17,419 nt of DNA from Gammaproteobacteria bacterium (lineage in GTDB: Bacteria > Pseudomonadota > Gammaproteobacteria > GCA-001735895): contig JBNKUM010000055.1 in the NCBI GenBank assembly GCA_050298595.1, positions 1-17,419 of the forward strand, given 5' to 3'. The position numbers and the translations under genes were made by a program. The notes beneath the pieces are model-generated. The model searched no databases. It worked only from the letters and a program-made list of their open reading frames with translations, and was not told where the DNA came from. Below, piece after piece: positions 839 to 17,419 of this stretch (position 1 is the stretch's first letter; every line of letters begins with the position of its first letter).

Positions 839-843
839 TTATC

Positions 844-2448
844 TTAAGCAACCCTGGATATACTAAGCTGACTTGCCAGATACTCTTCATAAGTACCCTG
901 AAAGTCATGGATTTTTTTATCCTTGATTTCAATCACTCGGGTTGCCAGTGAAGATACAAACTCGCGGTCGTGGCTGACAAAAATAACGGTGCCATCGTAG
1001 TTGGCCAGCGCCTGGTTAAGCGCTTCAATCGATTCCATATCCAGGTGGTTGGTCGGTTCATCGAGAATCATGATATTGGCTTCCGACATCATTAACTTGC
1101 CGAACAGTAAACGATTTTTTTCACCACCAGAACAAACCTTAGCTTTCTTTTTCGAGTCGTCTGCAGTAAACAGTAAGCGTCCCAGGAAGCCGCGTACCAT
1201 TAGCTCATCGTGCTTTGGTTTGCGCCATTGCGACATCCAGTCAAACAGCTCCAGATTGTTGTCGAATTCCGACGTGTTATCCTGCGGGCAATAAGCGATA
1301 TTGGCATTTTCTGACCATTTGATAATGCCCTGATTGGCTTCTATCTCATTCATCAGACAACGTAGCAGGGTGGTTTTACCGCAACCGTTTTCACCGATTA
1401 TGGCGAGACGGGATCCTGCTTCAAGAATAATATCGCCACCTGAAAACAATGACTCTCCATCAAATCCATGTGCCAGATTTTCCAGCACCAGTGCCTGGCG
1501 ATGGAGTTTCTTTTCCTGTTTAAAGGTGATGTAAGGCGTCATGCGGCTGGATGGTTTTACTTCGTCCAGTTTAATCTTTTCCATTTTCTTGGCGCGCGAA
1601 CTGGCCTGTTTGGCTTTGGACGCATTGGCGGAAAAGCGGTCGACAAACTGTTGTAACTCAGCAAGTTCTGCGCTCTTTTTCGCGTTAGATGATTGCAGCT
1701 GTTCACGGATCAGGGTGGATGCCGCCATGAAGTCTTCATAGTTACCAGGGTAGATACGTAACTCGCCATAATCGATATCCGCCATGTGCGTGCATACCGA
1801 GTTCAGGAAGTGACGATCATGCGAGATGATTATCATGGTGGATTTGCGTTGACTGAGTATATCAGCCAGCCAGTTGATGGTGTGTATATCCAGGTTGTTG
1901 GTCGGCTCGTCCAGTAGCAGGATGTCAGGGTCGGCAAACAGTGCCTGTGCCAGCAGCACACGCAGCTTCCAGCCGGGGGCAACCTGACTCATTAAACCAT
2001 AATGAAAGGATTCTTCTATACCGGCTTGCAGCAAGATCTCACCCGCACGGCTTTCTGCGCTGTAACCATCCATTTCGGCAAATTCACCTTCCAGGTCAGC
2101 CACCTTCATACCATCTTCTTCCGACATTTCGGGTAATGAATAGATTCGGTCACGTTCCTGCTTGACCTTCCATAATTCAGCATCCCCCATGATCACGGTA
2201 TTAATGACGCTGTATTCTTCAAAGGCAAATTGATCCTGACTTAACACGCCCATTTTTTCGCCGGGCGTGATGGATACGTTGCCGGAAGAGGGTGCCAGTT
2301 CGCCGCTCAGTATTTTCATCAGGGTCGATTTTCCACAACCGTTTGCACCGATCAGGCCATAGCGATTGCCATTGCCGAACTTGGCTGAAATATTTTCAAA
2401 TAATGGCTTCGCGCCAAACTGCATGGTGATGTTTGCGGTGGAAATCAA
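844..2448 (-). CDS. ybiT: ABC-F family ATPase (ribosome-associated), YbiT-like
   Basis: Two ABC domains (GANGCGKS and GENGCGKT; [11 protein letters not shown] and [10 protein letters not shown]), no TM segments, N-terminus [22 protein letters not shown] typical of YbiT. TTG start. Confidence 0.93.
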
Positions 2449-2560
2449 TGGGGTATACCTGGGGTGCCTGTAAAGAAGATAAATAATGAAGATCGCTGCC
2501 GGCCAATAAGAGACGCTCAGCGGGGGCGCACTTTAATGAATTTGACCCTGAAAGTCGAGT

Positions 2561-2598
2561 AAAACCCCATATTACCGACTAAAAGCGGCATTATGGGG
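2561..2598 (-). terminator. Probable intrinsic terminator downstream of rdgC
   Basis: On the minus strand CCCCATAATGCCG-loop-CGGTAATATGGGG followed by TTTT. Confidence 0.55.
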
Positions 2599-2652
2599 CG
2601 TTGTTTACCTGTTTAAGGTCCGTGTTGCGGTACTTGAGCCTGGGTTGAATGC

Positions 2653-3573
2653 TTATTCAGCCTGACGCGAGTCATCTTCCCCACCAAACGCAGGGATGAG
2701 TGCCTTGAAAAATTCCGATAGCTCCAGCGTCATGATGGAGAATTCGATATCGAATTGTTGGGCCACATCTTCAGCTTCTGCTTCATTGGCTTTTTCATGC
2801 ACGATATCGGTGAACTTCAATCTTTTAATATTCAGCTTTTCATCGATGATGAAGTTGATACGTTCCTGCCAGCACAGCGCGAGCTTGCTCACATGCATAC
2901 CACTTTTAAGGTGGTTGAGAATCTCGGTGGTGCCCAGATCATGATTTTTACAGCGGATAATGCTGTGAATATCGGCATTGTCACGCAATTCACATTCCTC
3001 TCCCAGCACAAAGTTGTGCGTGGGATTGCCACTATTAACCCACTGCGTCATGACCTCTATCGGTACATTCTTGGGCGCTAGAGGAATCAATGATAAAGGG
3101 CCAACTGCTGAGCGCAGTTCGTGTAGTAGGTCTTCCGCGCGCTGGGTGGATGATGAATCGATCAGTAACATATTGTCACGTAAGGAGATATAGGCAAAGT
3201 TCAGGCTTGATCGAACAAAAGCCTTGGGCAACATGCTGAAGGTGATTTCATCCTTCATCGAAATGCGTTCTTTGCGCGATAGTTTGCGTGCCTCGGTCTG
3301 TTCAATGTGCAGAATTTTTTCTTCCATAGCTTCGCGAATAACTGCGGCAGGGAGTATCTTATCCTGACGCTTTAAACAAACCATCAGATAGTCATTAACC
3401 GAATGCACAAATTCACTGCCATGACGACCCAATGGGGGCACCCAGCCGGAGCGGGTCAAATCCTGACTACCACAGGGCTCGAAGCTGTGTTCAGTGAGAA
3501 AATCGTTAAGCGATTGCGCCGTTAATTCGCAGGGTTTGGTAAAGCGGTATGCCTGTATGTTCTTGAACCACAT
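2653..3573 (-). CDS. rdgC: Recombination-associated protein RdgC
   Basis: MWFKN..YRF start, GWVPPLG, KILPAAVI, 306 aa, C-terminal AFGGE: all typical of RdgC. Confidence 0.95.
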   Translation of the reverse strand: MWFKNIQAYRFTKPCELTAQSLNDFLTEHSFEPCGSQDLTRSGWVPPLGRHGSEFVHSVNDYLMVCLKRQDKILPAAVIREAMEEKILHIEQTEARKLSRKERISMKDEITFSMLPKAFVRSSLNFAYISLRDNMLLIDSSSTQRAEDLLHELRSAVGPLSLIPLAPKNVPIEVMTQWVNSGNPTHNFVLGEECELRDNADIHSIIRCKNHDLGTTEILNHLKSGMHVSKLALCWQERINFIIDEKLNIKRLKFTDIVHEKANEAEAEDVAQQFDIEFSIMTLELSEFFKALIPAFGGEDDSRQAE

Positions 3574-3621
3574 ATAAAGTGTATAGCCTCAATATTTTCA
3601 TGGATGGGAAGGGGTTTATCA

Positions 3622-3634
3622 GGCGCGCATTCTA
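3622..3634 (-). promoter_or_regulatory. Putative sigma70 -10 element with GC-rich discriminator for rdgC
   Basis: Minus strand TAGAAT followed by GCGCGCC, about 50 nt upstream of the start. No clear -35. Confidence 0.35.
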
Positions 3635-3995
3635 TCAGTACTAATATTCCGTGTGTTTATAAATTATATCTGTATGAAAATTGACAAAGTCGTGAAAATT
3701 TTAACTTTCTAAAAAGTGTGGATAGTGATTAATCCAACAGTTATTATTTTATTGGTGTATAGATAAAATTAATTAACTTAATTATTTGATATTTAAGTAA
3801 AAAAATTGTACAGAGTGAAATTTTTATAAATTGTTTTATGCGACCAATTTAATCCACAAAGATTCAATTCAATTTAAATTTAATTGATCCATGCTAATCA
3901 GGCCAGTAAATGGAACAATATTGATTGAGGTGCCTCCTGTATTGCACTAAAATTCAATTCTTTTTATCTAACCAATCAATAATTCGGAGTACTCT

Positions 3996-4289
3996 ATGAA
4001 AAAACAAAATGCTGATCAAGGCCGTCGTTCAATCCTGAAAGGGTTGATGGGCATTCCTGTAATTGCTGTTGCTGGCTTCCAGACTTCTGCACAGGCTGCA
4101 ATGGTCGATGTCAATGATCCAACTGCAAAAGCACTGAAATACACAGAAACTAGCACTGTAGATGGTAGCTCTTGCTCTAACTGTGTTTTGTTTTCTGGTG
4201 GTACTGCTGATGCAGGCCCTTGTGCAATCTTCCCCGGTAAAGAAGTTAAGGCAACGGGCTGGTGTGCTTCTTACGCTAAGAGGCCTTAA
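3996..4289 (+). CDS. High-potential iron-sulfur protein (HiPIP) with Tat signal peptide
   Basis: GRRSILKG twin-arginine motif, AQA cleavage site, DPTAKALKY, four Cys in CSNC..GPCAIFPGK.V...GWCASY. GGAG RBS at 3986-3989. Confidence 0.95.
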   Translation: MKKQNADQGRRSILKGLMGIPVIAVAGFQTSAQAAMVDVNDPTAKALKYTETSTVDGSSCSNCVLFSGGTADAGPCAIFPGKEVKATGWCASYAKRP

Positions 4290-4309
4290 GCTTAAGCTTA
4301 TTGCACTAC

Positions 4310-4351
4310 AAAACTGGCTTTTCGGGATTTTCCTGGAGCCAGTTTTTTTTT
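4310..4351 (+). terminator. Intrinsic terminator after HiPIP
   Basis: AAAACTGGCT...AGCCAGTTTT stem followed by a long T run. Confidence 0.85.
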
Positions 4352-4894
4352 GCCTGCAGAAAAATGCTGATAACGGTTTTCTTAGCATAAAGTCAAGCTA
4401 TATCAAAGCTTTGCGCCGATCGGCGTAAACACTCAAGAAGTTGCTATGCCGATTTTTCAGGGTGTTGCTCAAAGTGTCAGCACATACATACTATTCCCGG
4501 AGAGCTGCCTAGCTCTAGCCCAAAATTCAGAATACTGATCAGCCCTCGGGTAAAAAAATATCTGGCAACATGTTCCGAGCTTATTGAAATCATATCGCTA
4601 TGACTGAGTAGTCATAGACTACTCACCTGTGAATCAGACTCGATATGGTAATGCGCTGGTTTTCTTCCGGCCCTGGCGAGTGTGACGTCAAGTTTGCTGC
4701 GGATCGACGGCGCGCCATGCAGCAGACTATCCACTCTTATCGGTACAGAGTTTCCCTGCTCAACGATTTTACCAGTCCAGTGGATGGTCCTTAGGAGAAG
4801 TGACGTAGAGCTTTTTACTATAATGCTTTCATGGGTCTCTATATGTGTTTCAGGGTAAAGCCTTAAAAACTCCATGATGGCTTGAGGGGCGAAA

Positions 4895-5080
4895 TTGACC
4901 GAAGAGGCTGGCGAAGTGCCAATGGTAATAAGTGGAGCAGCGATTATCTGGGGCGAAAAAGATATCGCTGCAACTCCTGGCTATTGTGAAGTTGGGCTGA
5001 CCAATGAGTCGCCAAATGAGCCAGCATCCCTGATAATTGTGGATGAAAAGCTGCTACACCAATATCTGGGCATTTATTAA
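4895..5080 (+). pseudogene. Probable C-terminal remnant of a gentisate 1,2-dioxygenase-like cupin
   Basis: WGEKDIAATPGY..LTNESPNEPASL...DEKLLHQYLGIY resembles the C-terminal cupin of gentisate dioxygenases. It lies directly upstream of an FAH hydrolase and has no N-terminal part. Confidence 0.5.
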
Positions 5081-5107
5081 TAATATTGTTTCAAGAGAGA
5101 AAACAAC

Positions 5108-5806
5108 ATGTCGAACAAATTTGTATTTCCTGAACCGGCTACATCCACAGTTCCCGTTGAAGGTAGTGATGCACTTTTTCCGGTCAATCGAATTTTCTGT
5201 GTGGGTCGTAATTACCATGCACACGCAGCCGAAATGGGTGTGAGCATCGATAAGACCAGGCAGCAACCTTTTTACTTCACCAAGCATCCATCGGCGATTG
5301 TGGCCAGTGGCAGTCATATCGATTACCCCCCTCAGACTGAAAATTATCATTACGAGATGGAACTGGTTGTAGCGATTGGTAAAGCCGGATTTTGTGTTAG
5401 CGAAGATCAGGCCAATGATATGATCTTCGGTTATGCCTGCGGACTGGATATGACACGTAGAGACCTTCAGCTCGTAGCGCGTGAAAATAGACACCCCTGG
5501 GATCTGGGTAAAGACTTTGAACAGTCAGCGGTGATCTCGTCTATCGTACCTGTTGAAAAAACAGGTCTGATTGAGTCGGGCAGTATTGAATTATCGGTGA
5601 ATGGCGAAGTAAAGCAAAAATCAGATATCGAAAAACAGATCTGGAATATCAATGAAATTCTGGTTCATCTATCCAAATTCTATCATCTGCAAGCAGGCGA
5701 CCTGATATATACCGGGACACCAGAGGGTGTAGGCCCTGTGGTTGCTGGCGATGTTATCAAAGGCTCTGTTGAAAGAGTAGGTCGTATTCAATTGACCATC
5801 AAATAA
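5108..5806 (+). CDS. Fumarylacetoacetate hydrolase family protein (fumarylpyruvate hydrolase-like)
   Basis: RIFCVGRNYHAHAAEMG, YHYEMELVVAIG, GLDMTRRDLQ, GDLIYTGTPEGVG. Confidence 0.92.
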   Translation: MSNKFVFPEPATSTVPVEGSDALFPVNRIFCVGRNYHAHAAEMGVSIDKTRQQPFYFTKHPSAIVASGSHIDYPPQTENYHYEMELVVAIGKAGFCVSEDQANDMIFGYACGLDMTRRDLQLVARENRHPWDLGKDFEQSAVISSIVPVEKTGLIESGSIELSVNGEVKQKSDIEKQIWNINEILVHLSKFYHLQAGDLIYTGTPEGVGPVVAGDVIKGSVERVGRIQLTIK

Positions 5807-6038
5807 TGAACTAGAGCCCCTTTCAAATGCATAAAAGGTTCTCATGCCAATAGGGAAATTATTTATCTTATTTTAAAATGCTGGTGAGTTTTGTAGATCA
5901 TTAGCATGGATGTTTAAAAGTTCTACCTGGTTCACGATGTCTGGATTTCACATTGTTTAACATTTGCCCTCTAGCTATGGTGCCCTGAACAGGGTGTCAT
6001 AGAGATATCAAAATCAAAGCAGTCAGTGGAATCTTTAA

Positions 6039-6173
6039 ATGCAAGCAGTGAGTAATATTTTTAAGTGGTCGGTTTATGCAGTTACCTTCGTGGGTGTGCT
6101 GACGGTGGGTGGTGTTGTGGGCTTCTGGTTAAGTATAGAAACGCTAATCTTATTGATGGGTGTTGCTGCTTAA
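6039..6173 (+). CDS. Putative 44-aa small membrane protein (not in ORF track)
   Basis: ATG..TAA frame MQAVSNIFKWSVYAVTFVGVLTVGGVVGFWLSIETLILLMGVAA, strongly hydrophobic. Weak RBS. Confidence 0.4.
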   Translation: MQAVSNIFKWSVYAVTFVGVLTVGGVVGFWLSIETLILLMGVAA

Positions 6174-6255
6174 CTACTTTTGTTAAAGGGCGGAGTTAAT
6201 CGATCATTTAGAGCCAGTTATTCTTCATTTACCAGTTTTCTAGTGGCATCCTTAT

Positions 6256-6643
6256 TTAGATGCCACTCTTTTCATACCAGAATTTTGGAAAACTCTGTCC
6301 TGTCCTAACCAACCACTTTTTGAAGTCAGATTTTAGTACCGCTTCATCAGTCAAAATAATCTTCATTTTCTTCCGCGACATTTATTAAATGGGCCAGGAT
6401 TGCTGCTTTTAAAATTATGGGACCTTCAAATTCTATGACGGTGTAGCCAATATAGGGATATGACAGAAGATCGTCTTTAGAGTCCATCCATTTTGGATTT
6501 TAGCTTTGCATCCACAGTCCCTGTTTAATGACACCATTTGCAAGTTTTTTAGCGACCAGGACATCATGCTCTAAGGTTTCTCTGCCCCAGAGACTGACCA
6601 CATCCCAGAATTTATATGATTCTACGTATATCCCTTCATTCAT
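6256..6643 (-). pseudogene. Decayed hypothetical gene (in-frame stop plus frameshift)
   Basis: MNEGIYVESYKFWDVVSLWGRETLEHDVLVAKKL..MQS*(TAA 6500-6502)NPKWMD..YPYIGY..AHLINVAEE, then another frame near 6365 continues IILTDEAVLKSDFKKWLVRTGQSFPKFWYEKSGI*. Confidence 0.65.
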
Positions 6644-6712
6644 GATTTTTCCAGGGTACCTCTGAACAATTATGATGTGTCTCTGGGAAGTAAGTGAAAA
6701 ACTTGCTGCAGG

Positions 6713-7204
6713 TTATGCACGCTTTTCATTTTTCCACTTTAGGTAGAGTGAAATATCACTCCACACAGCCCCTGTTGCATAAAGAGCAATAGCTAGAAAT
6801 GCTACATACGCGCCAATTTCTCGGCGATCAGCAAAAAATGTGGATGCGAAATCGACGACAAAAAGTGAACCAGCTAAAAAGAATGGTTCGAGAAACCTGA
6901 TTGTTAAATCAACTCCTCCATTGGCCTTCCAACTGTTAATCCCTATAAGCAATAGTGGCCAGATGAACGCCAAAACACTGATCCAGCTTCCAGGGTCTGA
7001 AGCTACAAAATGATTAAGCACGTAGATTTTCTCTTCTCGTGTTGAAGCGTTTTCTTTAGAGTCCTCACTCGTTGATAATGAGTAACTGTCGATTGTTGAA
7101 TTCGGTTGAACTGAGACGGTGCATGTAGACATTGGAAGTGAAATGCTTAGTAGCAATAAAATAGCTCCAATGGCTTTCAGTATTTTAGTTGCAGTCCATT
7201 TCAT
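6713..7204 (-). CDS. Hypothetical membrane protein
   Basis: 163-aa ORF with an N-terminal hydrophobic segment and about 3 further hydrophobic segments. Confidence 0.7.
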   Translation of the reverse strand: MKWTATKILKAIGAILLLLSISLPMSTCTVSVQPNSTIDSYSLSTSEDSKENASTREEKIYVLNHFVASDPGSWISVLAFIWPLLLIGINSWKANGGVDLTIRFLEPFFLAGSLFVVDFASTFFADRREIGAYVAFLAIALYATGAVWSDISLYLKWKNEKRA

Positions 7205-7414
7205 TGTTTTATTTTAGTTTGCCTTTTTGGTGTCAAAGCTGCGCGAGTGGAGCGCTTTTTCGTAATTCTGAACAAGCCTGTTGTTATGTGCTTTTCGCAT
7301 TTATCTCTCTATATTCCCATTCATGGACTCTTTAATCAACTACAGCTTTTTATTTGTGAATTAGCTCAATGAAGTTACTATATTTCAGATTAGTTAGATA
7401 CTACGAGGAGTAAA

Positions 7415-7726
7415 ATGATTGCCAGAGAATGGAAAGCCAGATGTCCCCAGGCTCACAGGGCAGGGTTTATCAAATATCTGTACCAAACTGGAATCAAAGA
7501 TGCTTCATCGACTTCAGGTTTCAAAGGTGCTCAAATATTTACTCGTGAACTGGATGACAATTTTGAGGTGACTTTAATCACCTATTGGGAATCACTGGAT
7601 TCAATCAAGGCCTTTGCTGGTGATGATATTAATGTTGCTCGTCTTTATCCGGAGGATTACCAATACGAACTGGAACCGGATGACTTTGTGATTCATTACC
7701 AGGTAGTTGAGAATCAATGGCTATAA
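7415..7726 (+). CDS. Antibiotic biosynthesis monooxygenase (ABM/dimeric alpha-beta barrel) family protein
   Basis: MIAREWKA..TSGFKGAQI..LITYWESLDSIKAFAGDD...ARLYPED. Strong RBS GAGGAG. Confidence 0.82.
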   Translation: MIAREWKARCPQAHRAGFIKYLYQTGIKDASSTSGFKGAQIFTRELDDNFEVTLITYWESLDSIKAFAGDDINVARLYPEDYQYELEPDDFVIHYQVVENQWL

Positions 7727-7747
7727 ATAAAAGAGTTTATACAACGT

Positions 7748-8206
7748 TTACTGTTCTGATTTTGAAATTTTAAAGTGATGGTTGAACTTAAACTTTCTCC
7801 ATACGCCACGTGGCTCAGATAAATAGGGGATAAGCCATTGCGCTTTTGGATACAATGTTATTTCCCAGTCGTCTCGTGTAAAAAACTGAAACTTGACCCT
7901 GTTAGGCTGGAGGATATTTCTTAAGGTGAATGAACCCGTCCCATACGGCCATGATAAGCTAGCCCGGTCTAGAATACTTAAATCCTGATCAAGATAATGA
8001 ATATTTAAAGTATCTTCATAAGGGCAGTCATTCGTTGTAAACACGAGGTAACAATCCTGATATTTGATAGCGGCTTCAAGAATTGCGCCTTCCAGGATTG
8101 AGTCGGTAGCTGTCCCATTAATGTATATCTGGCATTTAGGTATTTCTGTTTCTGAAGCTTCAGATATTTGTTTTGTTAAGAATTCTCCGGAGTTTAGAAC
8201 ATTCAT
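7748..8206 (-). CDS. Hypothetical protein
   Basis: 152-aa ORF starting 10 nt after the lrp stop on the same strand. No recognised motif. Confidence 0.7.
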   Translation of the reverse strand: MNVLNSGEFLTKQISEASETEIPKCQIYINGTATDSILEGAILEAAIKYQDCYLVFTTNDCPYEDTLNIHYLDQDLSILDRASLSWPYGTGSFTLRNILQPNRVKFQFFTRDDWEITLYPKAQWLIPYLSEPRGVWRKFKFNHHFKISKSEQ

Positions 8207-8216
8207 TGGTTTTTAA

Positions 8217-8687
8217 TCAGCTAACAGGCAATGCCGTGGTATTAATCGGTGATTTGAGCACAAACGATGTATGCACTCCGGAAACGCCTTCAATACGGGT
8301 CAGCTTGTTTAATAAGAATTGCTGGTAGCTATCCATGTCTTCGACCACGACCTTGAGCTGGTAATCGGCAGTCTGGCCAGTGATTAGATGACACTCGAGT
8401 ACCTCGGGATAGTCTGCCAGCGTAGATTCGAACAGTACAAAACGTTCGGGGATGTGCTTATCCATGCTGATACCGATCAGGGCCATGAGTGATAGCCCGA
8501 GCTTTCTTGCGTTTAGTAGAGCAACATATCCATCGATGAGGCCGTTTTCTTCCAACATCTTGACACGACGCAGCGTGGGGGAGGGTGACAGGTTGATGGC
8601 TTCTGCCAGTTCCTGATTTGAGATGCGGCCATTTTTTTGCAGGATATCAAGGATCTGTCGATCATATCTATCAAGTTGAAGTGTCAT
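8217..8687 (-). CDS. Lrp/AsnC family transcriptional regulator
   Basis: LDRYDRQIL..LQKNGRISNQELAEAINLSPSPTLRRVK HTH plus the EVLECHLITGQ.DY RAM domain. Divergent from leuA. Confidence 0.95.
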   Translation of the reverse strand: MTLQLDRYDRQILDILQKNGRISNQELAEAINLSPSPTLRRVKMLEENGLIDGYVALLNARKLGLSLMALIGISMDKHIPERFVLFESTLADYPEVLECHLITGQTADYQLKVVVEDMDSYQQFLLNKLTRIEGVSGVHTSFVLKSPINTTALPVS

Positions 8688-8810
8688 AATATTTCCTGAA
8701 AAAATAATACATAAGAATAATATACCAATATAATTAAAATTATTAGCAGTAAATGCTTTGAAATCAATAATTCATGTGATTATTGAAATTTAATTCCAGA
8801 GCGCAGCCCT

Positions 8811-8994
8811 TATACTTTCTCCATGCCTGAAACCGGTAGCGATGCGAGTCACAAGCTCCTCCTGGCACGATTGGCCCATTAGCATCACAAGTGCTAAGCG
8901 GTAATCGTAAACCTCTGGGTTAGTCACCACACCAGAGTCGCCAGGAGTTCGCAACAGGGTTTTTATGAGCATATTCTTTTATCAGGAGTTACCC
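8811..8994 (+). promoter_or_regulatory. Leucine-responsive attenuator-like 5' leader of leuA
   Basis: Leu codons CTCCTGGC (8859-8866) complement GCCAGGAG (8940-8947) and the SD region CAGGAG (8983-8988). Hairpins TTAGCA/TGCTAA (8879-8897) and CTCTGG/CCAGAG (8913-8937). Confidence 0.65.
8823..8882 (+). CDS. Putative leuA leader peptide MPETGSDASHKLLLARLAH
   Basis: 19-codon ORF with tandem Leu codons CTC CTC CTG plus TTG upstream of leuA. TATACT -10 at 8811-8816, 6 nt before the ATG. Confidence 0.7.
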   Translation: MPETGSDASHKLLLARLAH

Positions 8995-10686
8995 ATGATC
9001 ACCAACCCACAGCAAAAATACCGCAGCTTTAATCCGATTCAGTTAAGCGATCGTCAATGGCCCAATAAAGTACTGGAAAAGCCACCGATCTGGATGAGTA
9101 CTGATCTTAGAGATGGTAATCAGGCGCTTATCAATCCCATGTCTGTTGAAACCAAGCTGCTTTTTTTCACAGCGCTGGTGGAAATGGGGTTTAAGGAGAT
9201 CGAAGTGGGTTTTCCTTCAGCCTCAGAAACCGAGTTCAATTTTGTACGACGTTTGATTGATGAAAACCGTATTCCTGCTGATGTGACCATCGAAGTATTG
9301 ACCCAGGCACGGGAAGAATTAATCGAAGGTACCGTGGAGTCACTCAAAGGTGTACATCGAGCAATCCTGCATATGTATAACCCGATAGCGCCCAGCTTTC
9401 GCGATCTGGTATACAACACCGATAAAGCCGGTGTGAAGGAGATTGCCGAGCGTGGTACGCGCTGGGTGAAACAATATACCGAGGCACAGGCTGATACCGA
9501 ATGGGTGTATCAGTATTCACCGGAAGTCTTTTCAAGTAGCGAGGTGGAATTTGCCAAAGAAGTCGTCGATGCGGTTTCAGAAATCTGGCAGCCCACACCT
9601 GAGCATAAGATGATTGTTAATCTGCCTGCCACCGTTGAAATGTCGACCCCTAATACCTATGCCGATCAGATTGAATGGATGCATCGCAATCTGAACCGAC
9701 GTGACAGCCTTATCGTCAGCATACATCCGCATAATGATAGAGGCACTGCTGTGGCTGCGGCTGAAATGGCAATGATGGCAGGTGCCGATCGTGTTGAAGG
9801 CTGTCTGTTCGGCAATGGTGAGCGCACCGGGAATGTGGATCTGATTACACTGGCACTTAATCTGTATTCGCAGGGTATAGATCCAGGTCTGGATTTCAGC
9901 CATATCGATCAGGTACGTCAGTTGGCGGAAGAATTCACACAGTTGCCGGTGCACCCACGACACCCTTATGCCGGTGAGCTGGTATTTACCGCTTTTTCAG
10001 GTTCACATCAGGATGCTATTCAAAAAGGTTTTAACCGACAGAAGTCCGGGACACATTGGGAAGTCCCCTATCTGCCGATAGACCCTGCTGATCTGAGTAG
10101 AAGCTACGATGCTGTAGTCCGCGTAAACAGCCAGTCAGGCAAGGGCGGTGTGAGCTTTCTTTTGCATCAGCAGGCGGGGTTTGAGTTACCTCGTCGTCTA
10201 CAGATAGAGTTCAGCAAGGTCGTGCAGCAGGTGAGTGATTCGACAGGAAAAGAAATCAGTAGTGAAACGATTTATCAGCTTTTTGATAAGGAGTTCTTAC
10301 AGGCGGATCATCCTTATAAATATCAGGCCAGTCAGTTCGTAAATGAGAGCGAGACAGAAGTGACTGCGCAGATTCAAAGCCGACATAAAGACAAAGATCT
10401 GACCTTAAGCGGTAAGGGTAATGGCCCTATAGATGCGGCAGCAACCGCTATAGCCGGACATGTTGGTCAGTCAATAACCGTAGTGGATTATCACGAACAC
10501 GGACTGGGCCTTGGTTCAGATGCAACAGCTGTGTGTTATGTAGAAGTAAAGATAGGCGAGCAGCATCCTGTGTTTGGCGTGGGGCAGGATCAGAATATTA
10601 CTACTGCCGCAATAAAAGCTTTAATGAATGGTGTTAATCGAGCGCTTAGATCGGGTGAAAAACAGGGGCAGGTTTTAGCTGCATAG
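8995..10686 (+). CDS. leuA: 2-isopropylmalate synthase (LeuA2/yeast-type)
   Basis: [66 protein letters not shown]. Start moved from 8965 to ATG 8995 because of the AGGAG RBS. Confidence 0.96.
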
Positions 10687-11108
10687 CGATAAGTGTAGTA
10701 GTTCATAGTTGCCCCGAATGAGTTGAATGATTAATTAACCACGAAGCACACGAAGATTATTTAGTCTATTGTTTGCTGTAGGGTTACACAGGTACTATGG
10801 CAAACTCAAAGGCCAATCTATGTTGGAAGGCATCGTTCGCGGATTTTCACCCTGTGATTCTGGGTTATGGGCTGTTTTTAATATTGAGTATCAACTATCA
10901 GAAAGCAGCCATTTGAATTCCGAATATCAATAGATGCAGTCGACCCGAAGCGGCCATTTGTAGTTGAAAAGATACTGGCAGAAATCGGCACATACCCGCG
11001 ATTAACAAACTGGTGAACACTGTCTCTGAAGTACCAAGCCGGGACTTAGGTTATTTATTGAGTTATATTTATCCTCAAGAGAATTATAAATCTAGACGGG
11101 GGAGTACG

Positions 11109-12083
11109 ATGAATTTGGAAATCATAGATAACTGCGACGTCACAGTCCTGATAGATAACGTCATGGATATTCTTTCCACCACGTCCAGGTCGGTTACCGG
11201 GCATATCCCGAACGTTTTCAAAGCGGGAGCCACGGAGCTTTCGGGAAAATGCCTTTGCTGTTCCCATTGGGGGTTATCCCTGGTAATCACTGCCAGGCAA
11301 AACGACCACAAGAGAACACTCCTGTTCGACTCGGGTCCGGAAGGAAAGACGGTTGAACGAAACGGTAGTCGCCTTGGCGTCGATTTTTCGTCGATCGATG
11401 CCGCTATGTTTTCGCATGGGCACTGGGATCATGTCGGCGGGATGTTGTCGGCCCTCACGTTGATAAATGAGGCAAAAGGCGGAAAGAAAATTCCCGTCTA
11501 TGTTAACGACGATATGTTCGTTCATCGGGGAATTCGCGTCAGCGAAGACAAGGTCATTCCATTCGAAGACCTGCCCGCCAAAAGTGAACTGGAAGAGGCG
11601 GGGGGTGTCATTCGATCGATAGCCGCAGAACACGCTGTGCTCGACGACATGTTTTACATCAGTGGTGAGATTCCTCGAATAACAGCTTACGAAAAAGGCT
11701 TACCTACGCATGTAAAGGACGTGGGCAAGGGCTGGGAGCCCGATCCCTGGATAATGGACGAACGATATGCAGCCATACATCTCAGGGAGAAGGGTATCCT
11801 GGTATTTACGGCTTGCTCCCATGCGGGCGTGGTAAACGTGCTCAAGGATGCCCAGAAACGATTTGATCCGATACCGCTTTACGGCGTCATGGGTGGATTC
11901 CACTTGTCCGGCAAGGAGTGCGAAGCGATCATTCCCGAAACCATCCGGGATATGCAAGAATTCAACCTGAAGCTAATCGTTCCTGGTCACTGTACCGGAT
12001 GGAGGGCCGTTCACAAACTGGTTGAAGTATTCGGCGAGGACGTCGTGGTCATGTCGGCCGTCGGGAACTCCTACAGTTTTTGA
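11109..12083 (+). CDS. MBL-fold metallo-hydrolase (7,8-dihydropterin-6-yl-methyl-RFA-P synthase-like family)
   Basis: HWGLS, LLFDSG, SHGHWDHVGG, ACSHAGVVN, GGFHL, PGHCTG. Start set at ATG 11109 after GGGGGAG. Confidence 0.88.
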   Translation: MNLEIIDNCDVTVLIDNVMDILSTTSRSVTGHIPNVFKAGATELSGKCLCCSHWGLSLVITARQNDHKRTLLFDSGPEGKTVERNGSRLGVDFSSIDAAMFSHGHWDHVGGMLSALTLINEAKGGKKIPVYVNDDMFVHRGIRVSEDKVIPFEDLPAKSELEEAGGVIRSIAAEHAVLDDMFYISGEIPRITAYEKGLPTHVKDVGKGWEPDPWIMDERYAAIHLREKGILVFTACSHAGVVNVLKDAQKRFDPIPLYGVMGGFHLSGKECEAIIPETIRDMQEFNLKLIVPGHCTGWRAVHKLVEVFGEDVVVMSAVGNSYSF

Positions 12084-12270
12084 TATCTGGAATCGGACGA
12101 ACATTAACGATCCCAAAGGCTACCGGAAGTGCCCTCTGCCAGCCTTCCGGCGAAAGCCCGAATTCATCCCGCAGACTGTAATAACATTTCCTCCAGCGCA
12201 GGCCCGGAAACGGTGTATAAATGTCACAAATAAGTAACGGTGCGTTGGCCGTAAAGACGGCTTCCGGCAC

Positions 12271-12351
12271 ACCAGAGACAATCACTCATTGACCCGGAAT
12301 GACCGCTTCCAGGAAGGAGTCATTCACTTGCTGACCTTAAATGACTTCTGA
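12271..12351 (+). repeat. 81-bp repeat copy 1
   Basis: ACCAGAGACAATCACTCATT...AAATGACTTCTGA, 78/81 identical to 16727-16807. Internal stem GAATGAC..GTCATTC. Confidence 0.95.
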
Positions 12352-12355
12352 CGAC

Positions 12356-12527
12356 CCAGACTGTGTGAAAACTATTTTCCAATTTTTCAAGTGGAATATG
12401 TGGGCATATATAGAATCAATTTCGTATGGTTAGTGGTTATTGAACTCAAAATAATACTGAAAAATCATTCCGCAGTGGGAAATATTTTTGGTGTCATCAG
12501 TTTGAAGCGAGTCTTCACACAGCCTGG
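12356..12527. mobile_element. 172-bp non-autonomous MITE with 18-bp terminal inverted repeats (IS1182-like ends, tentative)
   Basis: Left CCAGACTGTGTGAAAACT and right AGTCTTCACACAGCCTGG match at 16/18. AT-rich non-coding interior. AC on both sides. Confidence 0.8.
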
Positions 12528-12692
12528 ACCCATACCAGACGTTCAGTGGCTCTATTTTTAAAAACAGTAAAAGCGTATCAACCCTTGACTTTATTGCCTA
12601 ATAAGCACTTCATGGAGCCTACCCTCATGAGCTTCAGATCAATTGGTTAAAATTTAATCTCTCCGACCCCTTTTATTCATCGCCTTTGGCTC

Positions 12693-12784
12693 ACCAGAGA
12701 CAAACACTCATGAACCTGGAACGACCGTTTCTAAAAAGGAGCCGTTCACATCTTGGCCCTCAATGACGACCCTTCTGTGACATT
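12693..12784 (+). repeat. Diverged repeat copy 3
   Basis: ACCAGAGACAAACACTCATGAACCTGGAACGACCGTTTCTAAAAAGGAGCCGTTCAC..AATGAC, colinear with copies 1 and 2. Confidence 0.85.
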
Positions 12785-13021
12785 CGTGTTGCCTAGTCTA
12801 TAACCTAAAACTACCTTATCCTTAGTAGTTTGAGGATAAATACTTGGGCTATCTAGGCTGTATTGATGATGCACCCTTCACCATCGTTGGAAATAATTAA
12901 TTCTTGTTTCATTGCTCCATCGTGAAAGTCGTATACTAAGAGACTCGGATGGTGTTTGTCATAGGATTGCCCAAAGAACACACAAATGGCATTCGATGCG
13001 CACGGAAGTACATGTACCTTA

Positions 13022-14254
13022 CTACCGCGAGCGTCTCTTCAGTAGATAAAATGTGCGGACAGCCAGGTTGGCGAGCCAGTAGAAAACGTTGTCAATTACT
13101 CCAGCGGTAGTCAATACAACAATACCAAGAGAAAGCATCAGAACCCCAACCCAGACACCAATTGCCGCAATAATCGCGTAAGCTGGAAAAACGAGCCCGG
13201 TATAAAACAATACTTGCCAGATGTCCCGTGGAAAAAATTCCGCGCTCAGTATCAGTGCAATCATCAATGCGCCCCAGGCCAGCCAGGCCCTCAACGAAAA
13301 CGCATAGGTGCTAAATACTTGCAAAAACCTGGTCACCGCATCAACATTCGTTATGTACGCCAGCGCGAGAAATGGAATTTGGGCCAAATGCACAACAAGT
13401 ATTCCATAGAGCCTTATTACACCTACCAGATCATCGTCTGCTTCGGGCGTATGTGAATATATATTGGCTACCAGTCCTGCAATACCAATCGAAATTAAGA
13501 TGTTGACGGGACGTCTGAGATGCTCCCCTAGCCTTCTATTAAGATTCTTCCAGGATTTCGGTTCTATTGGACCTTCGAATATCCCCGCTTGATCCATACG
13601 TTTTGAGGCGGCAATGGTGACATCGCTAGCGGTAGAGTATAACTTTTCGAATTGAACGCTGTCTGAAAACCAATGAAAGGTTTGATCCAGGAATTCGAGG
13701 TAGTCGATAGATACTTTTTTGGGGAATGTTGGTATTCCTTTTGCATCAAATTCCAATTTACCATATGTGAATTCAAATACCGTGGTTTCCAGAGTCTGCA
13801 AGGCATCCGGGTCATCAAATATCTTATCTTGCCAGATCATGCGAATTCGTTTTTCGTCTGTTTCTCCCACGCGAGTCAAAGCAACACGGTCGCACAATTC
13901 GTGTACTTGGTGCCAGTCAGTCTCAAATTCAAAGTCGGGTTCCCGGGATTGTTTTGTTGGTGCCTCTGCCTTTTCCGTTGGCATATGTGGCACTGCGACG
14001 AGTACCGGTGCTGGAGGATTTATAGCTTCTTGTGGGTCGGTCTCGACCTGATCGTCAACCTGTGCAGGGACTTGCAACTCGGATAGTGCCGCTTCGTAGG
14101 CCCTGCGCAATTCCTGAAACGCGCCCCCCTCAGATACCTGATCAATCTTCTTGAGTTTTACGGCATACGCTTTTCGTACCGTCTGTTTAGTCGCGTTTGA
14201 TCGTTGAATGTCGAGGACAACGAACGGCCAGTCTCTTGACTCAGAACTGGACAT
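13022..14254 (-). CDS. Membrane protein with N-terminal degenerate J-like domain (DjlB/DjlC-type HscC partner)
   Basis: WPFVVLDI..VRKAYAVKLKKIDQ..AFQELRRAYEAAL is J-like with no HPD, followed by a Pro-rich linker and several C-terminal TM segments. ATG 14254 overlaps the hscC stop (ORF track starts at 14266). Confidence 0.75.
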   Translation of the reverse strand: MSSSESRDWPFVVLDIQRSNATKQTVRKAYAVKLKKIDQVSEGGAFQELRRAYEAALSELQVPAQVDDQVETDPQEAINPPAPVLVAVPHMPTEKAEAPTKQSREPDFEFETDWHQVHELCDRVALTRVGETDEKRIRMIWQDKIFDDPDALQTLETTVFEFTYGKLEFDAKGIPTFPKKVSIDYLEFLDQTFHWFSDSVQFEKLYSTASDVTIAASKRMDQAGIFEGPIEPKSWKNLNRRLGEHLRRPVNILISIGIAGLVANIYSHTPEADDDLVGVIRLYGILVVHLAQIPFLALAYITNVDAVTRFLQVFSTYAFSLRAWLAWGALMIALILSAEFFPRDIWQVLFYTGLVFPAYAIIAAIGVWVGVLMLSLGIVVLTTAGVIDNVFYWLANLAVRTFYLLKRRSR

Positions 14255-15950
14255 AACCACTCTCAAATCGGTCCAACTCTTCGGTTATCCGTTCTCGCAA
14301 CAATGTGATATCCGTCGGGTCCTGACGCGCTAGGGTATCTTCGAAACTAACCAGCATTTCCTGTAGATACTCACGATCTTCAAAACGCGCCATGGCGTAG
14401 CATTGTTCAATTCGTGCCTGAACCGCCATATTTTCCTGCTGATCCCGCGGATGTATCTTGAGTTTATTAAGCGCCGATAGCTTTGTCCGAATCTCGTTGT
14501 CTGAGAGTTCGCCGGACAATTCAGTAATCAAAAGATTATGTTGTTCGCCGGTGGATAACACCTTGACATCAACCTCCAACAAACCGGAAATGTCGTAACT
14601 GAAACGTACAGCTATGCTTTCATGCTGTTGAAAATTTCGGGGAACTTTGATCTTCAACGATGCCAGAAAAATATTGCCTTCCACGCGCGCAGCTTCTCCC
14701 TGATAGACTCTAACCTCAATATTTCGCTGACCCAGCTGTGCGGTATGGAAAATTTCTTCCCTTGAAATTGGCACCACTGAGTTTCGCTCGATGATTGGTG
14801 CGTAATACCCAATATGGTTGGCACCATACCCACTCTTTTGGGTTTCGATACCAAGCGTAAAAGCGCTGACATCGGTCATCACAACATCGTCCAGCGCAGC
14901 ATCTTTTCCGACCAGTCCCGCCTGGATGCCGGCACCAAGCGCTACCACCTGGTCGGGGTCCAGTCCTATCTCCGGTAATTTCTTAAGCAACTTGCTGATG
15001 TAACTACGGATTAGCGGCATGCGCGTGGCACCGCCAACCAGGACAACTCGATCAATATCCTCAACCCGTAATTTGGCATCGTAGATCGCGCGTTCAACAG
15101 GCCGGTGCAGCCGACGGGTCAATTCGCTGGACAGCTCTTCGAATCGGCCACGCGATATCTCGAGTGTCACCTCCTTGCCTGAGACTTGTGCCTTCAAGGA
15201 GACCTGATGACGACTGGACAACTCGTGCTTGATGATTTCCACATTACGTCGTAGTGCTCCTTTTTCTTCGTATGTTAATTTTTCCAACCCAAGATCTTTG
15301 ACAAAATGCTCCACCAGGACACTGGTGAAGTCTTCACCTCCCAGGAAGGCATCGCCGGCCGATGACTTCACCTCCATGACACCTTCAAAAACCTCCAGGA
15401 TTGATACATCAAATGTACCACCACCAAGATCAAATACTAGAAATGTACTTTCCTGGGCGATGTCATGCAGACCATAAGCTAGTGCTGCCGCAGTCGGCTC
15501 ATTGATCAAACGGAGCAGGTTCATCCCTGCGATTTGGCATGCCGATTTGACTGCTTTACGCTGAAATTCATTGAAATAGGCTGGCACTGAAACCACGACA
15601 TCCGTAATCGGAACCTGCAAATAGGATTCAGCATCACGCTTTAGCGACGAAAGAACAATTGCGGACAACTCTTCCGCCGTGAATTTTTTTCTTCCTAACT
15701 TATATGTTTTTTCAGCCCCCATGGTGCGTTTAAACACAGAAGCTGTACGTTCTGGTGAAGTGACTAACTTGGATTGGGCTACATCTCCGCAGACCACAAT
15801 ATCACCATCTATGTGCACCACCGAAGGCGTCAGAAATTTACCAAGTGCGTTCTTAACCAATACAGGTTTTCCATCCTCAAAGACGCAGACCAACGAGTTG
15901 GTGGTGCCGAGATCAATTCCAATGTAGGGCATCTTCGTTATAATTTTCAT
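14241..15950 (-). CDS. hscC: Hsp70 family chaperone, HscC (Hsc62)-like
   Basis: IGIDLGTTNS, VSVPAYFN, INEPTAAALAYG, DLGGGTFDVS, LVGGATRMP. Short 569 aa with C-terminal KIHPRD and an adjacent J-like gene. The start may be ATG 15932. Confidence 0.9.
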   Translation of the reverse strand: MKIITKMPYIGIDLGTTNSLVCVFEDGKPVLVKNALGKFLTPSVVHIDGDIVVCGDVAQSKLVTSPERTASVFKRTMGAEKTYKLGRKKFTAEELSAIVLSSLKRDAESYLQVPITDVVVSVPAYFNEFQRKAVKSACQIAGMNLLRLINEPTAAALAYGLHDIAQESTFLVFDLGGGTFDVSILEVFEGVMEVKSSAGDAFLGGEDFTSVLVEHFVKDLGLEKLTYEEKGALRRNVEIIKHELSSRHQVSLKAQVSGKEVTLEISRGRFEELSSELTRRLHRPVERAIYDAKLRVEDIDRVVLVGGATRMPLIRSYISKLLKKLPEIGLDPDQVVALGAGIQAGLVGKDAALDDVVMTDVSAFTLGIETQKSGYGANHIGYYAPIIERNSVVPISREEIFHTAQLGQRNIEVRVYQGEAARVEGNIFLASLKIKVPRNFQQHESIAVRFSYDISGLLEVDVKVLSTGEQHNLLITELSGELSDNEIRTKLSALNKLKIHPRDQQENMAVQARIEQCYAMARFEDREYLQEMLVSFEDTLARQDPTDITLLRERITEELDRFESGYVQF

Positions 15951-16336
15951 TCCTTCAATGATACAAAACAGTTATAGCAGTTATTTGATGCTCCATTTCG
16001 CTAGAGCTTGTTAACACTCGCAGATCGCTGCGCAAGAATACAATGCCCATTAAACTACAGAAAACAATTGATTTCTGGCACAGTTTTTCATTCTACGCTG
16101 CAACGAATGGGTTGACGACACCGGTCATATCCCTCGAGTACATGTTTTTATATTCTTAGCCCTTATACGTATAACGTGACTGCGATATGTTACAGGGATT
16201 ACGGAGGGGTAGGCAATATAGTGAAACAGGCGTCTAATGGATGCTTCTGGCACGTCGGTGACAAGTTATTGATTTTAAATGACAGCTTTGAAGTTGGCCA
16301 GAGATCAGCATTAAACCAATCCCTTGTCAATTTACT

Positions 16337-16577
16337 TCAAACTTCGGTCTGCTCAGCCATCTCCAGAGCGTCATCGACCTCAAAGTGCAGATATCGTATG
16401 GTACTTTCAAGCTTGGTGTGGCCAAGTAAAAGCTGAACAGCACACAGATTGCGGGTACGCCGATAGATCAAGGTTGTCTTGGTCCGTCTCATCGAGTAGG
16501 AGCCATAGGCTGAGGGGGCAAGTCCAATCTGCTTGATCGCAGCTTTCAACGATGCGGCCGTACTGACGGGGCGACAG
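16337..16577 (-). pseudogene. Tyrosine recombinase/integrase C-terminal remnant, frameshifted
   Basis: LSPRQYGRIVES, frameshift near 16540, then IKQIGLAPSAYGSYSMRRTKTTLIYRRTRNLCAVQLLLGHTKLESTIRYL..EVDDALEMAEQTEV. The HxxR His reads Tyr and the N-terminal part is absent. Confidence 0.9.
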
Positions 16578-16726
16578 CAAAGTCCTGCGGACTTATAGAT
16601 AGAACTTAATGGTTGTCAAGCTCTTGTATGATCATGAACGGAGTATTGCGCATAACAAACCAAATACCTGCTTCCATTTTCTAGAGTACTATCACGTTTT
16701 CCTAAAGTGAATGGCCGCTCCTGGCA

Positions 16727-16807
16727 ACCAGAGACAATCACTCATTAACCCGTAATGACCGCTTCCAGGAAGGAGTCATTTACTTGCTGACCTTAAATGA
16801 CTTCTGA
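16727..16807 (+). repeat. 81-bp repeat copy 2
   Basis: Direct repeat of 12271-12351 with 3 substitutions. Confidence 0.95.
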
Positions 16808-16866
16808 TTGGCACATTCTTGCCTATTGCGCCGCAACATACCAATGGCTGCTTTATCAACATTGCC

Positions 16867-17148
16867 TTAAAAAGCGTAAATTAACCCAAGGTATATTTTC
16901 CTGATCTGTTTTTCAGCCACGATAGGGCTGTCTGTAATGCTGGAGTCAAGCATAACCTGCTCGATACCGGTTAGCGCGAGTAATTGAGCAATAATTGAAT
17001 AGCCCACCATCAGGGATGTCAGTGTGTTGATGGCTTGACCACCCCTGTAGGCTGGCGGACCATCCTGAGCTTCAGAGACCATAATTCCGTGGTAGAAGTC
17101 CACCAGATCCGCACTTTGCAGTTGCAGACCTATGGATGGCTCGAACAA
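16867..17148 (-). CDS. Hypothetical ORF or gene fragment
   Basis: 93-aa ORF with TTG start. The frame stays open upstream to about 17256 without a clear start, so it is possibly decayed. Confidence 0.3.
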   Translation of the reverse strand: MFEPSIGLQLQSADLVDFYHGIMVSEAQDGPPAYRGGQAINTLTSLMVGYSIIAQLLALTGIEQVMLDSSITDSPIVAEKQIRKIYLGLIYAF

Positions 17149-17419
17149 CCTTTGTCCTGATTGTTCACTCCAGAACCAGGCTAAAATGCCGAGTTTCGAT
17201 CTCTCATTCCTATGACTTTTAAATCCTTGTTCACATTCAGGCAGGCTGAATAGAAGTTACGCGAGCGCATCTGGCCTTATATGTAAGCCTTAGCGCTTCT
17301 CCAGAGCTGAATTGATATTCTAGAGTCCCTCCAATGTAGCTGAATCTATCATCAATATAATTGACCATGGGTAAAATGATAGTTTTTTCATGATCACCGA
17401 CAAACGGTTTTTAATGGGG

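Follow-up and report, generated by a model that had tools for sequence, protein, structure and literature searches.

Miniature elements, a truncated tyrosine-recombinase unit and two acquired gene blocks in a strain-specific segment of a gammaproteobacterial contig

The 17,419-nt stretch analysed here (the window) is the entire 17.4-kb contig JBNKUM010000055.1 of a gammaproteobacterial draft genome (G000; 5.49 Mb, 119 contigs). Positions 10885-16860 had been proposed, from the letters alone, to hold an integron-like cassette array with non-attC sites and a tyrosine recombinase other than IntI (the original prediction). The analysis revealed that this patch is instead a decayed assembly in which gene-less miniature elements accompany a single dead master copy and two blocks of acquired genes, and that it is not an integron. 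The two classes of short motifs on which the proposal was founded are the inverted ends of one intergenic repeat of ~105-125 nt, and these sites probably serve an Xer-like recombinase. Confidence in the anatomy of the end words, the miniature and the units is high, and the whole explanation, in which the cargo was also captured by this route, is given a probability of about 0.6. The features are collected in Table 1.

Concerning the motifs, all the strings quoted in the original prediction are present at their positions. Class 1 follows the pattern ...GCTYCYGGCAC (GCTTCCGGCA at 12260, GCTTCTGGCA at 16243 and GCTCCTGGCA at 16717) and class 2 the pattern CGACCC-N8-CATT. GCTYCYGGCA has three matches in the window versus a shuffle mean of 0.15 (at least three in 0 of 200 shuffles), and CGACCC-N8-CATT has two (10941 and 12767) versus 0.04 (at least two in 0 of 200), counts that flatter the enrichment because both patterns were defined after the instances had been seen. 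A third class-2 site, at 12352, consists of CGACCC, a 169-nt MITE (miniature transposable element with inverted repeats; 12358-12526) and then ATACCAGACGTT. A fairer test was done with an 18-nt weight matrix, for which only 12 copies from elsewhere in the genome served as the training set, and it gave 16.3, 18.5 and 21.3 bits at 12253, 16236 and 16710, respectively. Three window sites reach at least 16 bits where 0.21 are predicted from the genome's own density, and the genome holds 67 of them versus ~12 in shuffles, so that the claimed recurrence above background is borne out. The weakest class-1 items, ATCGGCACAT (10984) and TTGGCACATT (16808), have only GGCACAT in common and score below 7 bits; the one at 16808 is the exact start of homology with the relative G011.

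Read in reverse, class 2 becomes AATG-N8-GGGTCG (the reversed 10941 site is AATGGCCGCTTCGGGTCG), and the two classes are thus one 12-nt arm in inverted orientation, each time followed by a different inward hexamer. The arm, AATGNCCGCTYC, is inverted at the two element ends. The right-end (RE) word is AATGACCGCTCC+TGGCAC (reversed, GTGCCA+GGAGCGGTCATT) and the left-end (LE) word is AATGNCYGCTTY+GGGTCG. The end word also heads other repeat families, for example one of ~90 nt beside the copy on contig C32. A sigma-54 promoter reading of TGGCAC...TTGC was discarded, the spacing being one base short by eye.

BLAST and nhmmer searches of the whole genome showed that the 81-nt repeat and the motifs at both its sides form one unit, with 27 copies at E<1e-3 distributed, mostly singly, over 19 contigs. 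In an alignment of 18 genomic copies, the unit is conserved from AATGACCGCTCCTGGCAC to CTGACGACCC plus a tail; in the orientation of the repeat it starts with AATGACCGCTCC+TGGCAC and ends with CGACCC, ~8 nt and CATT. The 81-nt direct repeat occurs three times in the window, at 12271-12351, 12693-12773 (73% identity) and 16727-16807 (96%). It is the body of the element and not the empty cassette to which the original prediction likened it. The partial copy at 10890 begins just past the point where synteny stops (~10877), and the LE end of copy 3 is replaced at 16808.

The copies lie between genes. Of the 26 that have an open reading frame of at least 110 aa on the LE side, 21 have a gene converging on that side, a bias with a one-sided binomial probability of ~0.001 by our own arithmetic; the frames were called crudely, and in two pairs both copies have one and the same neighbour gene. 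Among 41 genomes of the family, the ~105-nt repeat is found only in G000 (13), G001 (13), G011 (2) and G013 (1). All four holders have integrase hits, and none of the eight integrase-less genomes of the genus holds it; one of these eight, G010, carries other repeats ending in the same word. No match to the miniature was found among PLSDB plasmids. Inspection by eye of the copies whose ends are readable showed no target duplication (a script for finding the 3' end worked in 2 of 20), which fits a recombinase and not a DDE transposase. A search for empty sites of the copies on C40 and C8 in five relatives gave no filled/empty pair, as one flank was never common. By eye, the element has a hairpin at its centre, GAATGAC...GTCATTC, in which copy 2 carries one change that is apparently compensatory. 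Single-strand folds of the three window copies, on both strands, are not better than those of shuffles (z from -0.25 to -2.18). The degenerate hairpin sites that had been proposed are therefore not upheld, and the geometry resembles that of a duplex 12-6-12 core.

The recombinase that accompanies these words is a small one. Intact relatives have 208 aa and consist of the catalytic domain only, and they belong to the tyrosine recombinases of PF00589 (64-70 bits versus a cut-off of 27.1), the enzyme class named in the original prediction. The invariant columns of the family include R59, H156, R159, H182 and Y191, which we read as the putative catalytic residues. The best curated matches are XerA, XerC and XerD, at 37-59 bits versus XerC/XerD cut-offs of 330-335. 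The impression that the enzyme is not IntI was confirmed, as integron-integrase models give 16-25 bits versus cut-offs of 265 and 435 (TIGR02249, 17.4 and 24.6 bits versus 265; NF011946, 16-21 bits versus 435). The invertase models NF007371 and NF007370 give 17.6-21.4 bits versus 221-222, outside FimB/FimE membership. The family is spread over 463 plasmid records, 10 of 40 other genomes of the family and 14 of 400 sampled genomes of the class.

In the window only a remnant is left, without the N-terminal ~117 codons of the ~208-aa gene and without the first Arg. It is judged inactive because of this missing part, and its PF00589 score is 23.5 bits versus the cut-off of 27.1. It is the only copy of the family in G000, so that a working recombinase of the family is not supported for this genome. 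The RE word at 16236 lies 84 nt past the integrase stop, in inverse orientation, as in the relatives. Other Phage_integrase matches, at C32:8008-8445 and C100:154870-155058, stand 3.8 and 4.3 kb from miniatures and are not of the 208-aa family; three of 11 PF00589 matches are within 5 kb of a miniature, the window included, versus ~0.5 expected by our own arithmetic.

The link between the recombinase and the words comes from intact units in other genomes. In relatives the full unit measures 0.77-0.88 kb and carries one ~208-aa recombinase gene, with the LE word on its left and the RE word on its right. The RE half is found inverted 50-150 nt after the stop in three of the relatives' 10 integrase loci (G001:C92, G011:C37 and G049:C261) and in the window. 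When the 250 nt after the stop were scored with a matrix trained on G000 copies only, an RE word of at least 12 bits appeared in reverse orientation in 4 of 18 integrase loci and in forward orientation in none, while 3.6% of 305 control windows, with both strands scored, reach 12 bits. In 7 of 7 loci of the genus and family, the LE word precedes the ATG by ~60-95 nt, with the upstream consensus GAATGAC(T)SCT..CGGG.AG...TCATAC, and loci from four other families (L087, L090, L091 and L093) show AATGNCYGC...GGGTCG at the corresponding place. Moreover, G200:C7 has perfect inverted words at 97971(+) and 98828(-) around the gene, in an 875-bp unit, and G321:C3 has inverted words at 121677(+) and 122424(-), 765 bp apart, also around the gene. 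Whole genomes contain the LE word with at most two mismatches more often than a backwards control in G154 (22 versus 1), G001 (21 versus 4) and G000 (21 versus 5). The expected co-localisation of motifs and recombinase family was thus found both among relatives and in further families of the class.

In the orientation of the integrase, the order of words in the miniature (LE left, RE right) is that of the gene-bearing unit. The miniature is the gene-bearing unit minus its gene, and may be either a MITE-like deletion derivative or a bare site that can host the gene. Local alignments of the integrase flanks with the miniature, made pair by pair, were set aside, since their scores were 15-43 with ambiguous orientation, and multiple alignments and the matrix were used instead. 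In a Pseudomonas aeruginosa plasmid (L026; NZ_CP129201.1, 474515-475240), a perfect inverted repeat of 16 bp, TTGGCCGGTTAGCGAC, encloses an integrase homologue, its arms lying 60 nt ahead of the ATG and 45 nt past the stop (0 of 100 shuffles attain this); it is a different word in the same layout.

Regarding the relation of the words to changes in gene content, homology with the relatives ends at ~10870-10877 on the left, after a part (837-10877) that is syntenic with genus relatives, and resumes only at 16808 (G011:C90), 16861 (G012:C16) or 16866 (G010:C61). The interval of the original prediction is therefore strain-specific, and 10878-16807 is a variable segment; in the relatives, which are draft assemblies, the two flanks lie on separate contigs. 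G043, from another genus (g4), matches 11480-12270 at 90% and diverges directly after GGCAC. G001:C92 and G011:C37 have in common an 838-bp integrase unit (95.7%) whose end falls exactly at GTGCCA, and leuA of these two genomes is 89% and 76% identical to that of the window. G013:C85 and G002:C122 share 798 bp starting directly after the LE ...CGGGTAGAG, in the hexamer region. In these three independent comparisons homology breaks exactly at the hexamer adjoining the 12-nt arm, and, together with the start of G011:C90 homology at 16808, they agree with the expectation that motifs coincide with breakpoints between genomes. Each time the 12-nt arm accompanies the flank, and the hexamer is part of both sides, as strand exchange within a 6-nt overlap would leave them. 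On its inner side the RE hexamer ends in GACAAT, nearly the inverse of AATGAC, so that the layout reads by eye as 12-6-12.

Two cargo blocks are found between the words. The MBL (metallo-beta-lactamase)-fold protein is below every beta-lactamase model cut-off and occurs at high identity in one of the 40 other family genomes; its block recurs in genus g4 (G043) up to the hexamer. The second block is formed by an Hsp70 gene and its partner, whose single Pfam match is a weak one to ATP11 and which was found in 0 of the 40 other family genomes. The original description of both as lying between motifs is correct, and they are rare accessory genes. Furthermore, runs X5 and X6, from another study (salt marsh), contain of 8900-17419 just 13156-16041, with 0-6 differing letters per piece, uncovered parts in these runs not being by themselves evidence of absence. 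Both blocks are horizontally mobile, since they are rare among relatives and the Hsp70 pair stands alone in X5 and X6. The words could have been what moved them.

Taken together, 10878-16807 probably arose from tyrosine-recombinase elements that form one family and are very small. Each end would be a duplex core site with a 12-nt arm, a 6-nt overlap (TGGCAC or GGGTCG) and a 12-nt inner arm, and the recombinase would exchange strands within the hexamer. DNA beside one word would in this way be swapped for DNA beside another, and such swaps may have placed the MBL-fold block and the Hsp70 pair between words. The patch would now be inert unless the recombinase is supplied in trans, because the only copy of its gene is 5'-truncated.

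Several observations weigh against this explanation. The LE and RE hexamers differ (GGGTCG versus TGGCAC), so that a simple excision between LE and RE is not evidently feasible. G011:C123 keeps only the RE half of the C40 copy, beside a 99% identical gene, and this half-copy breaks inside the inner arm and not in the hexamer; the X6 contig leaves the window at 16041, where no strong word exists. Some breakpoints near repeats are to be expected, since small repeats of other kinds abound in G000 and accumulate in the same spacers, and the relatives are kin represented by draft assemblies, in which these repeats frequently form contig ends. No joint at the words indicating excision or inversion was found in the contigs of four runs, which are uninformative on this point because contigs cannot reveal rare forms. 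The RE word is strong in just 4 of the 18 integrase loci, the LE word is not above its control in two of five genomes (G321, 4 versus 5; G331, 4 versus 6), and an unbiased inverted-repeat search beat shuffles in just 3 of 18 loci (shuffles reaching the score: L026, 0 of 100; L089, 0 of 100; L090, 1 of 100). The ends of the relatives' integrase units are by eye ~60-65% like the high-copy miniature, with no direct parent found, and 27 copies exist in G000 though it has no intact family recombinase.

As an alternative, the miniature could be a MITE or a repetitive extragenic palindromic (REP)-like sequence, moved by an unrelated transposase or immobile, where the integrase prefers to insert, as IS1111 inserts into attC or REP, with the cargo arriving, for example, by homologous recombination in a repeat-rich hot spot. 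The many small nested repeat families of the genome, the second MITE that targets the same spot in five loci, the lack of a parent with near-identical ends and the persistence of 27 copies without an intact integrase all agree with it. Nevertheless, the integrase has the words at its sides in further families of the class, although no ~105-nt repeat was found in them, homology breaks at the hexamer and not elsewhere in the repeat, no target duplication was seen, and the miniature is present only in genomes with integrase hits (4 of 4; 0 of 8 integrase-less ones), even if G010 has other repeats ending in the same word. This explanation is consequently held to be unlikely. A terminator-like 3' element or structured RNA with no role in DNA movement would account for the intergenic location of the copies, most of which lie downstream of a gene that converges on them, and for the central hairpin with its apparent compensatory change in copy 2, but Rfam gave no match at E<=10, the folds reach just the z values given above, the copy number goes from 13 to 0 among species of one genus, and the ends are common with the integrase units; its probability is minimal.

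An integron-like platform, in which a resident integrase captures promoterless cassettes serially at a fixed site and each cassette ends in a hairpin site, agrees with the genes between related sites next to a tyrosine recombinase remnant, with the gene-then-site polarity of 21 of 26 copies and with the breakpoints at the sites. It is very unlikely, since the two motif classes are ends of one element that is mostly single over 19 contigs, the recombinase gene is itself flanked by sites in the manner of a cassette, the integron-integrase models score far below their cut-offs, and neither the folds nor Rfam reveal a hairpin site. The one-way array, attI and common promoter that such a platform implies were not seen either, and the cargo genes of the window are on both strands and point both ways. 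By eye, no GTTRRRY/RYYYAAC boxes, as in attC sites, were seen at the element ends. The words form inverted repeats around a short segment, and a catalytic-domain-only protein of ~208 aa has the size of the FimB/FimE type, with weak model matches (E 1.5e-4 to 2e-3, far below cut-off), so that the recombinase might flip its own gene or the ~100-nt miniature between inverted words and toggle the neighbour genes. Such an invertible switch is highly improbable, because free flipping would not result in the 21-of-26 orientation bias, the end hexamers differ, the best family matches are Xer-type and not invertases, and no opposite-strand joint at the words was seen in the contigs, which are weak evidence here. 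The explanation through small recombinase elements with core sites at both ends is thus preferred.

If the words are core sites, a widespread and generically annotated integrase family gains a role, bacterial miniature repeats become tied to a tyrosine recombinase and not to a DDE transposase, and a simple signature for junctions of acquired gene blocks in chromosomes would be available. Beyond the window, it is tentatively suggested that there could be a self-contained module-shuffling system in several families, in which a ~208-aa recombinase carried between ~30-bp 12-6-12 cores exchanges bracketed DNA and seeds gene-less miniatures as landing pads. If true, it would be a chromosomal counterpart of the dif modules with its own enzyme, and a third site-specific route of gene capture beside integrons and Xer-dependent modules. 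Taken alone, the window is of modest significance, with three miniatures, two blocks of acquired genes and a dead copy.

The 169-171-nt MITE has ~20 copies in G000. It occupies the identical spot, after CGACCC and with the GACCC duplication, in five loci and in both orientations, which indicates that it targets the recombination word. A contig joint from 12346 to 12529 corresponds to a paralogous copy without this MITE. It should be noted that G000 and its genus are unusually rich in small repeats. A ~50-nt unit, tandem and dispersed, occurs on more than 25 contigs of G000 (e.g., C32:10056-10105). The stretch 16608-16727, from the integrase remnant to copy 3, has the RE word as its end and is itself repeated: G010 has three copies of it and G001 has one. 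Different left-hand modules therefore share one terminal word. Directly downstream of leuA, 10721-10877 contains two more short repeat families: 10786-10875 recurs on several contigs of G010, G012, G011 and G004, and 10721-10787 recurs at G010:C61, 4.6 kb from mipA of G010. G000:C40:57621-58113 (L008) and G011:C123:6427-6919 share 493 bp at 99% identity, starting inside a miniature copy, while leuA of the two species is just 76% identical, which suggests a recent exchange or DNA shared between the assemblies.

On the right side of the segment, the MipA/OmpV-family gene is broken, with several stops in the upstream frames, and run X1 has a contig skipping 16898-17155 within this region (16867-17419). 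No tRNA or tmRNA that could be an integration target was found, and Rfam gave no match for the whole window at gathering score or for 12150-12900 at E<=10.

Table 1. Features of the window and related loci of the same genome
Feature	Position	Strand	Details
Left conserved part	837-10877		Di-haem peroxidase, ABC-F ATPase, RdgC, HiPIP, FAA hydrolase, Lrp/AsnC regulator, 573-aa isopropylmalate synthase (leuA)
Partial copy, LE side	10890-10958	+	Ends with perfect reversed LE word CGACCCGAAGCGGCCATT (10941-10958)
MBL-fold metallo-hydrolase	11109-12083	+	ATG at 11109, GTG at 11013 also open; between LE word 10958 and RE word 12253
Copy 1	12253-12357	+	RE word AAAGACGGCTTCCGGCAC 12253-12270, body 12271-12351, inner LE half CGACCC 12352-12357
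Unrelated MITE	12358-12526		169 nt; inverted ends AGACTGTGTGAA.../...TTCACACAGCCTG; 5-bp duplication GACCC; inside LE word of copy 1
Outer LE arm of copy 1	12532-12543		ATACCAGACGTT; past the inserted MITE
Copy 2	12675-12784	+	Body 73%; degenerate RE word, 8.2 bits; LE word CGACCCTTCTGTGACATT 12767-12784
Hsp70 partner	13022-14266	-	414 aa; hydrophobic C-terminal part; 26-nt overlap with Hsp70 gene
Hsp70-family gene	14241-15950	-	569 aa; below DnaK and HscA equivalog cut-offs; "HscC-like" is the label of the original prediction
RE word	16236-16253	+	AATGGATGCTTCTGGCAC; 18.5 bits; right end of truncated integrase unit
Tyrosine recombinase remnant	16337-16573	-	Last ~78-90 codons with HxxR, LLGH and Y motifs
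Copy 3	16710-16807	+	96% to copy 1; RE word AATGGCCGCTCCTGGCAA, 21.3 bits, and body
Start of second, variant element	16806-16860	+	GGCACATTCTTGCC...; G011 homology from 16808
MipA/OmpV-family remnant	16867-17148	-	C-terminal 93 codons open; right conserved flank of variable segment
Other MITE-in-LE loci of G000	C32:~3971-4141; C100:~159170-159340; C26:~1052-1228; C86:~18272-18442

No tyrosine-recombinase unit with miniature derivatives, nor these words, was found described in the literature searched (outside subscription journals and supplements), so that a description under a different name may have been published; passages of PMC8138268 contain no such unit or words. Neisserial dRS3/RS intergenic mosaic elements and minimal mobile elements consist of short repeats stacked in variable spacers, with a conserved inverted word as their boundary. 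Their word is also an integration target, and the enzyme acting on it is not known to be a small Xer-like recombinase carried between words. The window resembles them in its repeat stacks with an inverted word where gene content differs, and differs from them in sequences and taxa. With integron cassettes it shares tyrosine-recombinase sites at junctions of unrelated accessory genes and the gene-then-site polarity of most copies, but there is no IntI, attI or Pc, no array beside the integrase and no sign of attC-like folds, and the sites are dispersed.

The system is more like dif modules or MITEs than an integron. The dif site is bound by XerC/XerD and has an 11-6-11 structure, whereas the words described here are read as 12-6-12 from the breakpoints; their sequence is presumably unlike that of dif. 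Like MITEs, the miniatures are 105-125 nt long, multi-copy, non-coding and intergenic, have inverted ends that are common with a longer gene-bearing unit (~60-65% identity by eye), and vary in copy number between lineages. Unlike in MITEs, the gene-bearing unit encodes a tyrosine recombinase and not a DDE transposase, target duplication was not seen, and the ends resemble recombination core sites that contain a hexamer for the crossover.

In the dif (pdif) modules of Acinetobacter plasmids, as reported, gene blocks are bracketed by short inverse Xer-type core sites (arm-spacer-arm) and shuffled between replicons, and the IS1202 family of insertion sequences inserts specifically next to pdif (PMC6449649, PMC13141974, PMC10132070). 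The gene blocks of the window are similarly bracketed by inversely oriented arm-spacer-arm sites and found in different contexts, and the 169-nt MITE that targets the LE word resembles the IS1202-family elements that target pdif. The best model matches of the recombinase family are also XerA, XerC and XerD. On the other hand, its scores are far below the XerC/XerD cut-offs, the sites are chromosomal and lie in two-ended miniatures of ~105-125 nt, and the enzyme is a dedicated one of ~208 aa, which lacks the N-terminal core-binding domain and whose own gene is located between two sites. The system therefore has features of both a MITE and a dif module.

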